A DNA stretch of 28,353 nt from a virus (lineage: Duplodnaviria > Heunggongvirae > Uroviricota > Caudoviricetes), in the IMG/VR virus record IMGVR_UViG_648276669_000001. One strand, 5' to 3'. A program made the translations under genes and the position numbers. Shown here piece by piece: positions 5,552 through 24,943 of this stretch. The notes beneath the pieces are model-generated. The model ran no database searches, was not told the DNA's origin, and worked only from the letters and a program-made list of their open reading frames with translations. The stretch's first letter is position 1. Each line of letters opens with the position of its first letter.

Positions 5552-5620
5552 GTTGGTTTTTCTCCACGGATTTACTGACAACCGAAGCCCTGACTGTTCC
5601 CGCAGTTGGGGCTTCAACTT
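5552..5620 (+). ncRNA. sar: Candidate sar antisense RNA (about 68 nt, antisense to the arc-ant intercistronic region and ant RBS)
   Basis: P22 is known to make a 68-69 nt antisense RNA here. Sequence shows a plus-strand promoter-like pair TGTTCA(5517-5522)-17 bp-TATACT(5540-5545) and a hairpin GAAGCCC...GGGGCTTC near 5580-5615. Confidence 0.45.
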
Positions 5621-23045: not shown

Positions 23046-23543
23046 TCATTGCTGCCCCCACAAACAGACTTCACGCTCAATCTCACGACGAGTCATCAGC
23101 CCTTTCCATTGCTTACCGCCAGCGTATGTCCAGCGACGTAGCTGGTCACATGCGCCTTTGATATCGCCCTGGTTTATTTTGCGAAGAAGCGTCGATGTTC
23201 TGAAATTGCCTGCGCCCACGTTGTAGACGAACGAGTAAAGAGCGCCGCGCGTTGTTTCCGGTATATCGACTTTGATGTACGGGTTAATTTGTCTGGCGAC
23301 CGTGGCAAGGTCTTTATTCAGGAGGGCTTTGCATTCTGCTTCGGTATACGTTTTACCGGGAATGATGTCTTTTCCGGTGTGTCCGTGACATACAGTCCAT
23401 ACACCAACGATATCTTTATATGGTATGTAGCTGACGCCTTCCAGACCATCGTTACCACTTGGGCCAGTGATTAACACAGATGCTATAGCAATAGCCCCGC
23501 CACCAATAGCCGCAGCAACGGCTTTTCGTAATGATGGAGGCAT
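23046..23543 (-). CDS. SAR endolysin (lysozyme, phage 21 R21 type)
   Basis: N-terminal signal-anchor-release segment [20 protein letters not shown] followed by a T4-lysozyme-like catalytic region. Confidence 0.9.
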
Positions 23544-23758
23544 TATTCACCTCTCGCAGCCTTTCTTCTGTCTTCTCTGATTTTGAAGTACAGATTTGTC
23601 AGATAGGTGAGAAAGCCCAACACAAGGCTTCCAAGCACTCCAATCGCAGCCCACTGTGATGGACTGACCTGATCCAACCACTGCAAAAACCAGTATCCCG
23701 CACTACCAGCGGATGTTCCGTAAGCAATGCCAGTTGAGATTTTGTCCATTGATTTCAT
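23543..23758 (-). CDS. S: Pinholin S21 with dual start motif (S21-71 at 23758, S21-68 at 23749)
   Basis: [71 protein letters not shown] matches phage 21 S21 from memory. Confidence 0.9.
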
Positions 23759-24046
23759 AGCAACGCCTCCGCCAGTAACGGATTGCGTAGTTCTTATATT
23801 GGGAAGGGGAAAAGAAGGCCGCAGCGTAACTATCGCTGATGAGTTCAGGATAGTCAGTGGCTACGGCTCAGTTTGGGTTGTGCTGTTGCTGGGCGGCGAT
23901 GACGCCTGTACGCATTTGTTGATCCGGTTCTGCTTCCGGTATTCGCTTAATTCAGCACAACGGAAAGAGCATTTATGGCTCGCATCGCGGGAAAAAGCCC
24001 ACGGTAGAGAGTCGAACTCTACAAATGCTCTTACCTGTTGCACAGA

Positions 24047-24108
24047 TATAAAAAATCCCGAAACCGTTATGCAGGCTCTAACTATTACCTGCGAACTGTT
24101 TCGGGATT
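24047..24108 (-). terminator. tR' terminator (end of the lambda-type 6S RNA)
   Basis: Minus-strand AATCCCGAAAC...GGTTTCGGGATTTTTTAT is recognisable as the lambda tR' hairpin. Confidence 0.75.
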
Positions 24109-24243
24109 GCATTTTGCAGACCTCTCAGCCTGCGATGGTTGGAGTTCCAGACGATACGTCGAAGTGACCAACTAGGCGGAATCGGTAGTAAGCGCCGCCT
24201 CTTTTCATCTCACTACCACAACGAGCGAATTAACCCATCGTTG
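24048..24243 (-). ncRNA. 6S late leader RNA (PR' transcript to tR', about 194 nt) including the qut region
   Basis: Near-identity to the lambda PR'-tR' segment by recall (…TGACCCAACGATGGGTTAATTCGCTCGTTGTGGTAGTGAGATGAAAAGAGGCGGCGC…). Confidence 0.65.
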
Positions 24244-24280
24244 GGTCAAATTTACCCAACTTTATTCAAATAGTCAATAT
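24244..24280 (-). promoter_or_regulatory. Late promoter PR' (-35 TTGACT, -10 TAAATT) with Q-utilisation site
   Basis: Minus-strand TTGACTATTTGAATAAAGTTGGGTAAATT matches lambda PR' with 17 bp spacing. Confidence 0.7.
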
Positions 24281-24319
24281 TATGCCGTTAATATGTTGCC
24301 ATCCGTGGCAATCATGCTG

Positions 24320-24943
24320 TTAACGTGTGACCGCATTCAAAATGTTGTCTGCGATTGACTCTTCCTTGTGGCATTGCACGACCAGAGCGTCATACAGCGG
24401 CTTAACAGTGCGTGACCAGGTGGGTTGAGTAAGGTTTGGGATTAGCATCGTTACAGCGCGATATGCGGCGCTTGCTGGCATCCTGGAATAGCCGACTCCT
24501 TTGCATCTTCCGCACTCTTTCTCAACAACTCTCCCCCATTGCTCTGTTTTGGCTATATCAACCGCACGGCCTGTACCGTGGCAATCTCTGCATCTTGCGC
24601 CCGGCGTCGCGGCACTACGGCAATAATCCGCATAAGCGAATGTTGCGAGCACTTGCAGTACCTTTGCCTTAGTATTTCCTTCAAGCTTTGCAACGCCACG
24701 GTATTTCCCCGATACCTTGTGTGCAAATTGCATCAGATAGTTGATAGCCTTTTGTTTGTCGCTCTGGCTGAGTTCGTGCTTACCACAGAATGCAGCCATT
24801 CCGAATCCGGCTTGTGATTGCGCCATCCCCATAGCAGCCATCACATCAGTACCGGAAAGAGAGTCAGAAGCCGTAGCCCGTGGTGAGTCGCTCATCATCG
24901 GGCTTTTTGGCGAATGAAATTTAGCTACACTTTCGAGTCTCAT
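24320..24943 (-). CDS. Q: Late antiterminator Q (lambda type)
   Basis: 207 aa; MRLESVAKFHSPKSPMMSDSPRATASDSLSGTDVMAAMGMAQSQAGFGMAAFCGKHEL... matches lambda Q from memory. Confidence 0.95.
   Translation of the reverse strand: MRLESVAKFHSPKSPMMSDSPRATASDSLSGTDVMAAMGMAQSQAGFGMAAFCGKHELSQSDKQKAINYLMQFAHKVSGKYRGVAKLEGNTKAKVLQVLATFAYADYCRSAATPGARCRDCHGTGRAVDIAKTEQWGRVVEKECGRCKGVGYSRMPASAAYRAVTMLIPNLTQPTWSRTVKPLYDALVVQCHKEESIADNILNAVTR

Follow-up and report, generated by a model that had tools for sequence, protein, structure and literature searches.

A conserved four-helix RNA with a T-arm-like hairpin in the late leader of a lambda/21-mosaic prophage

The DNA analysed here, IMG/VR record IMGVR_UViG_648276669_000001, is a stretch of 28,353 nt from a virus of the class Caudoviricetes (hereafter the window), all late genes of which lie on the minus strand. 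In transcript order the late region comprises the Q antiterminator gene, the promoter PR', a 6S-type RNA that ends at the terminator tR', a non-coding leader of 290 nt, and the holin and endolysin genes. An earlier note, made from the sequence without database searches, drew attention to a perfect hairpin in this leader, GTAGAG-TTCGACT-CTCTAC, which resembles the T-arm of a tRNA, and suggested that it could be a recombination scar, a fragment of a tRNA gene or an RNA element of the late transcript. We find that the hairpin is part of an RNA of four helices that follows tR', is conserved and specific to one strand, and is held by a closing stem that in phage lambda brackets an unrelated sequence.

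An inverted-repeat search places the arms of the hairpin at 24004-24009 and 24017-24022 on the minus strand, with a 7-nt loop, TTCGACT, so that the structure stands as first described, at 24004-24022 and on the strand of the late transcript. What follows CTCTAC is CGTGGGC, the earlier note having counted one C double. The 8-bp inverted repeat in which that note saw the hairpin nested does exist, and it is longer, with its lower arm at 23965-23974 and not near 23985. Its perfect part measures 10 bp (AAGAGCATTT/AAATGCTCTT, 24032-24023 with 23974-23965), 13 nt match at 92% (23962-23974 with 24023-24035), and if a bulge and a U-U mismatch are allowed, the repeat extends to 18 bp (24042-24023 with 23974-23956). 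The window has a single match to the pattern AAGAGCATT-N20-50-AATGCTCTT, 100 shuffles have none, and an 81-nt stretch folds at z = -4.1.

A four-helix RNA downstream of tR'

Hairpin and outer repeat belong to a module of 87 nt in which four helices, P1 to P4, join without linker nucleotides. P1, the closing stem, is also found around other interiors and is then called a frame; the window's own type of interior is referred to as type A. The parts of the module are as follows.

23956-24042, minus strand: whole RNA module, P1 plus a three-hairpin interior in a four-way junction (33 pairs, covariation)
24023-24042, minus strand: 5' strand of P1, consisting of UGCAAC, a bulged A, GG, a U (in the U-U mismatch) and AAGAGCAUUU; the same strand is kept in 143 unique frames
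23956-23974, minus strand: 3' strand of P1, consisting of AAAUGCUCUU, U, CC and GUUGUG; UGCUCU is invariant in 26 type-A sequences
24004-24022, minus strand: P2, the T-arm look-alike GUAGAG-UUCGACU-CUCUAC (100% paired, covariation)
23986-24003, minus strand: P3, a closed acceptor-like arm, CGUGGG-CUUUUU-CCCGCG (100% paired)
23975-23985, minus strand: P4, a small D-like arm, AUG-CGAGC-CAU (3 bp, one compensatory change)

Type-A homologues were gathered with a pattern for the interior (53 IMG/VR contigs), with patterns for the frame and with a genome pattern scan, and the fetched comparison loci received L-numbers (L001 is lambda, L008 a prophage). The structure was tested on alignment A2, which holds 26 distinct type-A sequences and from which the covariance model R1 was built. 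Over A2, 98.7% of 858 cells form standard pairs, and 12 of the 33 pairs show changes on both sides. None of 500 shuffles matched any of the observed structure measures, and pairing falls to 38-58% in a slid control in which the 3' partners were moved by 1-3 columns. It is this conservation with covariation that constitutes the decisive evidence for more than chance.

P1 is 97.9% paired in A2 and, with 18 bp, one bulge and one U-U mismatch, spans the approximately two helix turns expected of an RNase III substrate; in the window its two outermost pairs are wobbles and its upper helix is the perfect 10-mer AAGAGCAUUU/AAAUGCUCUU. P2 covaries in three of its six pairs (U-A, C-G, A-U, U-G; A-U, G-C). 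P3 shows changes on both sides in four of six pairs and includes a U-G pair that is workable on the minus strand only; in locus L253 a different hairpin replaces its sequence. In that same locus, P4 shows a compensatory change from U-A to C-G. Furthermore, the P1 pairs of the 143 unique frames comprise 2002 Watson-Crick, 91 G-U and 13 A-C combinations, and R1 scores other family members at 30-47 bits in the sense and at 15-28 bits in the antisense direction. The bias of G-U over A-C, the U-G pair of P3 and these strand scores together identify the module as an RNA of the late transcript and not as a DNA palindrome.

The likeness of P2 to a T-arm extends to the consensus, its closing G-C pair corresponding to G53-C61 and the UUCGA of its loop to T54-A58, with UAGAG/CUCUA as the inner 5 bp. 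The loop UUCGACU is invariant in the 26 homologues, though the pattern by which most of them were collected fixed it. P2 and P3 amount to 12 stacked pairs, as in an acceptor/T minihelix; a '12-bp ruler' for RNase P, which we considered for this stack, is weakened by L253, where P3 has 5 bp and linkers. The acceptor-like helix of 6 bp is closed by CUUUUU and is without CCA, and P1 occupies the position of the anticodon arm. In the modelled fold, the elements follow one another as they would in a tRNA that had been cut open in its anticodon loop and sealed where the acceptor ends. The P4 loop is complementary to bases of the T-loop (UUCG/CGAG), which may point to a loop-loop contact inside the junction; this pairing never varies informatively in A2.

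Searches with existing models gave nothing at the module. ARAGORN reports no tRNA and no tmRNA in the whole window, and likewise none at the prophage locus L008. With Rfam at gathering score, the sole match in the whole window is a sar RNA elsewhere, no model matching the frame or the type-A module, and a cmscan of 23400-24700 at E<=10 returned no tRNA-clan match and only noise (Ms_IGR-4 and sR17). No intrinsic terminator is predicted at the hairpin on the minus strand. A tRNA or tmRNA gene was rejected on the ARAGORN results for window and L008, a tRNA also for want of an anticodon arm and of a free acceptor end. The tRNA-gene fragment of the earlier note may apply to a distant origin and fails as a description of the present state, in which ARAGORN and Rfam find no tRNA and the acceptor-like arm is closed and without CCA. 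Of the two results which that note regarded as speaking against it, we obtained one, in that no Rfam model scores on the segment, but not the other: continuous alignments of the segment are confined to E. coli prophages that are uncharacterised, and none is to a named phage.

The closing stem, its interiors and lambda LPR2

Alignment A1, of the window with the late region of lambda, shows that the segment behind tR' is not the insertion that had been supposed. It is a replacement, with 53 nt here for 42 nt of lambda, and both interiors are bracketed by the same imperfect repeat, CACAAC-A-GG-U-AAGAGCAUU ... UGCUCUU-U-CC-GUUGUG. Pattern searches on this closing stem yielded at least 174 frame loci, 174 being the number fetched, and the interiors that they hold, 106 different ones of 9-176 nt, form 50 clusters; the sequence of P1 is far more conserved than any of them. 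In lambda, the window and a group of four loci (L077, L096, L111 and L222), near-identical flanks enclose three unrelated interiors (43, 54 and 35 nt, a count that takes in 2 nt of the upper stem), so that the exchange must be precise at the stem.

Given sufficient flank, the frame mostly sits between a Q antiterminator gene and lysis genes. Of 125 loci that extend far enough upstream, 73 have a co-oriented gene from one of three Q families ahead of the frame (median gap 284 nt), and a holin or endolysin gene, as detected with a small probe panel, lies downstream in 53 of 108 (median gap 361 nt). tRNA genes occur within 1 kb at 44 of the 174 fetched loci, and all 44 are co-oriented with the frame.

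Type A was found at 59 loci, and of 5426 complete E. coli genomes, 51 match the 121-nt query over at least 80% of its length; E. coli MS 16-3 is one carrier of the allele. Its flanks differ from place to place, the unit standing behind tR', behind tRNA-Thr or behind other hairpins; in phage-plasmids resembling phage P1 (L006, L009 and L031), it begins 3 nt after tRNA-Thr within a tRNA array. Diverged copies with compensatory changes extend as far as Enterobacter phages (CobraSix) and a Candidatus Erwinia dacicola genome, the latter being the one framed copy among the 46 matches of a genome-wide pattern scan for distant type A, which were nearly all ordinary tRNA 3' ends. From E. coli to the Enterobacter phages, the T-loop and the GCGAG loop are invariant. 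A recombination scar at the hairpin is not supported by these data, given that the crossover between lambda and phage 21 sequence lies about 150 nt downstream (see below) and the segment is a cleanly framed alternative interior.

The lambda counterpart of the module has been seen as an RNA. In an RNA interaction by ligation and sequencing (RIL-seq) study of lambda, LPR2 was reported as an RNA of some 63 nt that binds Hfq and comes from the late operon, beside 6S RNA; it is mainly lytic and had only two partners in chimeras, PreS and fliC; neither the frame, nor its spread, nor a variable interior is described there (bioRxiv 10.1101/2024.10.31.621285). The published northern probe for LPR2, P844, matches lambda exactly at 44816-44850 (L001 1107-1141), a stretch made up of the interior of the lambda frame and 4 nt from the upper stem, three of which belong to the 3' strand. 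Even with 3 mismatches allowed, it does not match the window anywhere. The span from GG to CC of the lambda P1 is exactly 63 nt (L001 1085-1147), which equals the reported size within the accuracy of a northern blot. Since the window has no P844 match at the same frame, it carries a different allele at the LPR2 locus, equivalent by position, for which we predict a product of about 74 nt:

23962-24035, minus strand: predicted processed product (GG...CC), about 74 nt long, modelled on the LPR2 of lambda

An RNA at this lambda locus was already known, if barely characterised; our literature search met with no account of the tRNA-like allele, nor of the frame, its spread and its exchangeable interiors.

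Several other interiors deserve mention. One of 60 nt (62 nt counting 2 nt of stem), present at L085, L097, L134, L139, L154, L124, L263 and L117, contains GGGCUCAUAACCC, which over 13 nt is identical to the anticodon stem-loop of E. coli initiator tRNA, a sequence that we confirmed at 100% in 5426 of 5426 E. coli genomes; the copy in L117 has GGCUUCAUAAGCC, with a compensatory stem change. L087 holds an acceptor and T-arm minihelix with the loop UUCAACU, a T-loop of the E. coli tmRNA type. T-arm-like hairpins also occur in L068 and L106, which have two each, in L158 and in L204, whose three-hairpin interior has the top score with R1 outside type A. Between two frames in L005 (2701-2802), L080, L229 and L219 lies a stretch ...ACAAAGAUAAAU GCA AAC GAU GAU UUG AUG UUG AUG GCG GCC UAA, resembling a tmRNA resume codon and a tag, ANDDLMLMAA, and followed by a T-arm-like hairpin and GCUACCA. 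It has weak Rfam matches to permuted and beta tmRNA (E ~0.03) and none with ARAGORN, and may represent an unrecognised phage tmRNA-like gene.

The frame is often preceded by a recurrent hairpin (GCUCCACGAAACGGAGC, GACACCUCGGAAGAGACGAGG or GGCCCGGUGUGAUUAAUAAUGGGC), a terminator or a tRNA 3' end, and is often followed by GGUGAAU-GCGCAGGCUGAUGCGC, such that the whole looks like a modular, non-coding array of 'beads on a string'. Matches of the frame finder at L004 1337-1355 and at equivalent positions of the CobraSix type are false positives, which may hint at an origin or be due to chance.

Two reading frames across the module were considered as genes and rejected. An open reading frame of 83 amino acids (24112..23861, minus strand), the analogue of lambda orf-64, starts inside the 6S RNA and runs through tR' and the module; its length and frame change with each interior (35, 43 or 54 nt), which means that it is not conserved. 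A frame of 12 codons from the AUG of P4 lacks a Shine-Dalgarno sequence, and L253 does not have this AUG. In L007 (3056-3526), PGAP annotates a coding sequence of 156 amino acids starting at the P4 AUG; judging from the sequence, this start is probably mis-called, an in-frame AUG downstream with a GGGAG Shine-Dalgarno (MKKKHLLIAG...) being more likely.

The mosaic late region around the module

Around the module, the late region of the window consists of a lambda part and a phage 21 part, the latter with a pinholin and a signal-anchor-release (SAR) endolysin:

24320-24943, minus strand: Q antiterminator gene, lambda type (205 of 207 amino acids identical to lambda Q)
24249-24277, minus strand: PR' late promoter and qut region (promoter scan; lambda alignment with three differences in the Q-binding element, QBE)
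24050-24107, minus strand: tR' terminator, end of the 6S-type RNA, with the stem ATCCCGAAAC...GTTTCGGGAT and a T run (equal to lambda in A1)
23877-23961, minus strand: second stem-closed domain, GUUGUGCUG...CAGCACAAC around two hairpins (predicted fold)
23806-23871, minus strand: third long hairpin, GCCGUAGC...GCUGCGGC, then a U-rich tract (alignments and predicted fold)
23543-23758, minus strand: S21-type pinholin/antiholin gene (71 of 71 amino acids as in phage 21)
23046-23543, minus strand: SAR endolysin gene, phage 21 type (160 of 165 amino acids as in phage 21)

The amino acid identities and alignment A1 thereby bear out the mosaic of lambda Q, PR' and tR' with a phage 21 lysis cassette that the earlier note had recognised. 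With the exception of the one replaced segment, the DNA matches lambda at about 97% from Q down to about 23815 in A1, and homology to phage 21, in the region upstream of S21, begins at about 23871. The crossover consequently falls inside the third long hairpin (23871-23815), which is common to lambda, phage 21 and the window; sequence comparison thus puts it ~150 nt downstream of the flagged hairpin. In phage 21, this third hairpin stands directly 3' of tRNA-Thr. With its CUUCUUUUCCCC tract it looks terminator-like, and the weak Rfam match to Ms_IGR-4 found there is noise.

A promoter scan gives the PR' hexamers as TTGACT (-35, from 24277) and TAAATT (-10, to 24249). From PR' through the 6S-type RNA to tR', there are about 9 mismatches to lambda in 307 columns of A1, three of them in the qut/QBE stretch between the hexamers (24255-24275, minus strand), which reads AUUUGAAUAAAGUUGGG versus UAUUGAAUAAAAUUGGG in lambda. 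This divergence of the QBE coexists with a Q that is 99% identical, and the G variant is also present in phage Dewey.

Downstream of the module, the second stem-closed domain and the lower helix of P1 both use the GUUGUG strand. When the entire leader is folded, the prediction pairs the outer GUUGUG with CAGCACAAC further downstream, so that the first domain rests on GG...CC, in lambda as in the window. The segment AAUUAAGCG...CGCCGCCCAG of the second domain (window 23877-23961, closed by GUUGUGCUG/CAGCACAAC) is found again in a frame of the P1 helix type in the phage-plasmid L006 (3319-3429), directly 3' of tRNA-Ser, and therefore also behaves as an exchangeable interior.

Far from the late region, at 5552-5619 on the plus strand, Rfam recognises a sar RNA (RF00262, 95.6 bits), the antisense RNA of P22-type immI (ant), so that this lambda/21-mosaic prophage also has a P22-like immI module.

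Possible roles and comparison with known RNAs

Among the three readings offered at the outset, an RNA element of the late transcript comes closest, as we see a covarying four-helix RNA on the transcribed strand whose lambda counterpart is LPR2. We regard it as probable, with real room for doubt, that the hairpin forms the T-arm-like part of a structured module, 87 nt long, in the Q-dependent late leader and that this module is the local LPR2 allele, with a processed product and the tRNA-elbow-like role proposed here. RNA polymerase modified by Q would read through tR', and the leader would fold into three successive stem-closed domains, the first of which would be cut or trimmed at the P1 bulge, leaving a stable product some 74 nt long; candidate enzymes are RNase III, or RNase E together with exonucleases. 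This RNA could present a tRNA-elbow-like surface to a putative host or phage factor that recognises tRNAs. By analogy with lambda, we infer that transcription would take place only upon read-through mediated by Q, which matches the mainly lytic LPR2, and that release at the bulge would occur in the window phage as well; a role of the released RNA as a tRNA mimic is speculative.

Several observations weigh against this account. The A2 sequences are closely related (92% mean column identity, effective sequence number 1.01), and the structure model was derived from the same sequences on which it was tested. P4 has only 3 bp, and the nearest-neighbour model (ViennaRNA) favours by 1.8 kcal/mol (-29.2 versus -27.4) an alternative helix between the T-loop region and the P4 loop, which over A2 leaves 11 cells unpaired and has one covarying pair, as compared to 100% pairing and three covarying pairs in the T-arm helix. 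In L253 the acceptor-like arm has 5 bp and linkers, so that the coaxial length of 12 bp is not strictly kept. T-loop-like hairpins occur in only about 8 of the 50 interior clusters, and tRNA mimicry is therefore not a property of the whole family. Last, the size of LPR2 comes from a northern blot, which makes the agreement at 63 nt approximate.

It is also conceivable, if rather unlikely, that the closing stem alone is functional, as a processing or stabilising site of the RNase III type that parts the 6S/tRNA leader from the lysis mRNA. The interior would then simply be compact, LPR2-like RNAs would be stable by-products and the likeness to tRNA a relic of tRNA sequence once captured. An 18-bp irregular helix suitable for RNase III, far more conserved than the unrelated interiors of 9 to 176 nt that it encloses, is what one would expect in this case, and LPR2 has two RIL-seq partners only. 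However, the type-A interior is itself structurally selected, as P2 and P3 covary and the T-loop and GCGAG loop are invariant, and both strands of P1 are conserved in sequence beyond the usual need of RNase III.

A base-pairing small RNA (sRNA) that depends on Hfq, as LPR2 may, would use its interior as an mRNA seed or an sRNA sponge, with other targets for other interiors. LPR2 was indeed recovered on Hfq and was found joined to PreS and fliC in chimeras, other sRNAs such as StxS and the Pas sRNAs originate from the late leaders of related prophages, and the P3 loop is U-rich. We nonetheless consider such a function improbable for the module, nearly all interior bases of which are paired in the supported fold, where the conserved single-stranded bases, those of the 7-nt T-loop and a 5-nt loop, are complementary to each other. 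Its 3' end is moreover not of the terminator type with a U tail.

We hold it for very unlikely, and already disfavoured by the above, that recombination at a mosaic hot spot left the hairpin behind as a non-functional piece of a tRNA or tmRNA gene from a phage. In favour of this reading are the canonical T-arm, the demonstrated mosaicism of the region and the tRNA genes that the same leader contains in phage 21, CobraSix and the P1-like plasmids, but a remnant would not be expected to show compensatory changes in three helices, G-U wobbles that suit one strand only, and recurrence as a unit in unrelated flanks, and the true lambda/21 crossover is elsewhere (23871-23815).

The 3' strand of P1 contains UGCUCUUU, which we take to be the core of the rrn boxA (8-nt identity), and a variant, GCUCUUAC, presumably corresponds to the boxA of lambda nutR. 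That this strand (UGCUCUUU-CC) is a NusB/NusE boxA masked by the 5' strand as an anti-boxA, forming a regulated signal for rrn-type antitermination or RNA chaperoning of a long, untranslated, tRNA-rich leader, appears highly improbable to us: the identity to the rrn core, the invariance of UGCUCU across the 26 type-A sequences as against a variable 5' partner strand, and the boxB-like GAAAGA loops of many upstream hairpins are outweighed by the burial of the strand in a covarying helix (the core GCUCUUU at 23970-23964 is invariant in A2 and lies inside it), by a strand asymmetry largely explained by wobble tolerance, by a Q-modified polymerase that should need no Nus-type protection, and by a scan anchored on the 3' strand that returned mostly unrelated coding sequence and no family member lacking the 5' partner.

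Returning to a processed LPR2 allele with a tRNA-elbow-like surface, its wider meaning would lie in the family. The lambda late leader was sequenced more than 40 years ago, and LPR2 was reported only in 2024; it now falls into a large family with one stem and at least 50 unrelated interiors, located in an accessory hot spot where Shiga toxin genes, tRNA genes and prophage sRNAs are found as well. LPR2 thereby gains a comparative framework, with constant parts, varying parts and a predicted point of processing. A far-reaching suggestion, which we put forward as doubtful, casts the closing stem as an 'RNA cassette holder' in general use among phages, a conserved stem that would serve to process and present small RNAs under fast exchange, both in late leaders and in tRNA arrays of temperate phages of enterobacteria. 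Some of these small RNAs would mimic parts of tRNAs as decoys or inhibitors of defence nucleases that target tRNAs, or in order to recruit tRNA enzymes. Candidate mimics would then be the T-arm and acceptor of the window, the copy of the initiator tRNA anticodon stem-loop and the tmRNA-like minihelix, and they would complement the real tRNA genes encoded alongside. Interiors that copy tRNA parts beside real tRNA genes thus suggest a testable link to phage counter-defence against tRNA cleavage. Should the interiors be mere filler, the stem would still constitute a widespread, uncharacterised processing signal of late transcripts.

The sRNAs of the Pas, STnc100 and StxS kinds come from the same kind of locus and are other RNAs with their own terminators, without an STnc100 match here. 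An analogy to integron attC sites, which combine an inverted repeat, extrahelical bases and a variable centre, was rejected on account of the long sequence conservation, unlike attC, the one-strand G-U bias and the lack of an integrase among the neighbours seen. The tRNA gene clusters that follow PR' in lambdoid phages (Asn/Thr in phage 21) and also in phage-plasmids like P1 occupy the same leader position and strand, but the module of the window differs from them in having neither an anticodon arm nor a free acceptor end.

T-loops of the kind UUCGACU are common in tmRNAs. In two-piece (permuted) tmRNA, as in the module, a T-arm and a 3' acceptor strand precede the 5' acceptor strand, and weak Rfam matches to tmRNA T-arms are found on the homologous copy in L005. 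In contrast, the window has no CCA and no tag reading frame, and its acceptor stem is closed by a loop of 6 nt. Phage transcripts are also known to carry RNase III processing hairpins, such as the early and late sites of T7, the lambda N leader and sib, with which the module shares a long irregular helix with bulge and mismatch in an untranslated part of a polycistronic transcript, as well as LPR2 ends that by our estimate fall in the helix; it departs from them in its apex, which is a large, selected and exchangeable structure and not a simple loop.

YrlA-type Y RNAs consist, in order, of a long stem formed by the ends, a T-arm, a loop-closed acceptor-like stem-loop, a D-like arm and the stem again (PMC4201824, Chen et al. 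2014). The module of the window has the same element order and a canonical T-loop, but differs in several respects. Y RNAs of this type are encoded on the same strand as a Ro60/Rsr (TROVE) gene and no more than about 4 kb from it; no such gene lies near the module, its neighbours being Q, holin, endolysin, spanin and nin genes, and no TROVE protein is encoded within 3 kb on either side of the prophage locus L008, which is 100% identical over the 121-nt query. The motif GNCGAA(N0-1)G, a putative Ro60 site close to the 5' end of YrlA RNAs, is absent from the 5' strand of the window, UGCAACAGGUAAGAGCAUUU; the loop CACGAAAC of the hairpin upstream of other loci does not fit GNCGAA(N)G, and this loop is absent from the window. 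The D-like arm is minimal (3 bp and a 5-nt loop), linker nucleotides are lacking, there is no Rfam match, and the module is part of a phage late mRNA leader and not of an rsr operon. It thus at least looks like a tRNA mimic, and is a member of neither the tRNA, the tmRNA nor the YrlA family.

Compared to lambda LPR2, lastly, the body is unrelated, with 53 nt and three hairpins against the 42 nt of lambda, whereas the locus is the same, right after tR' and before the lysis genes, with near-identical flanks, the same closing stem and, presumably, a transcription that depends on read-through of tR'.

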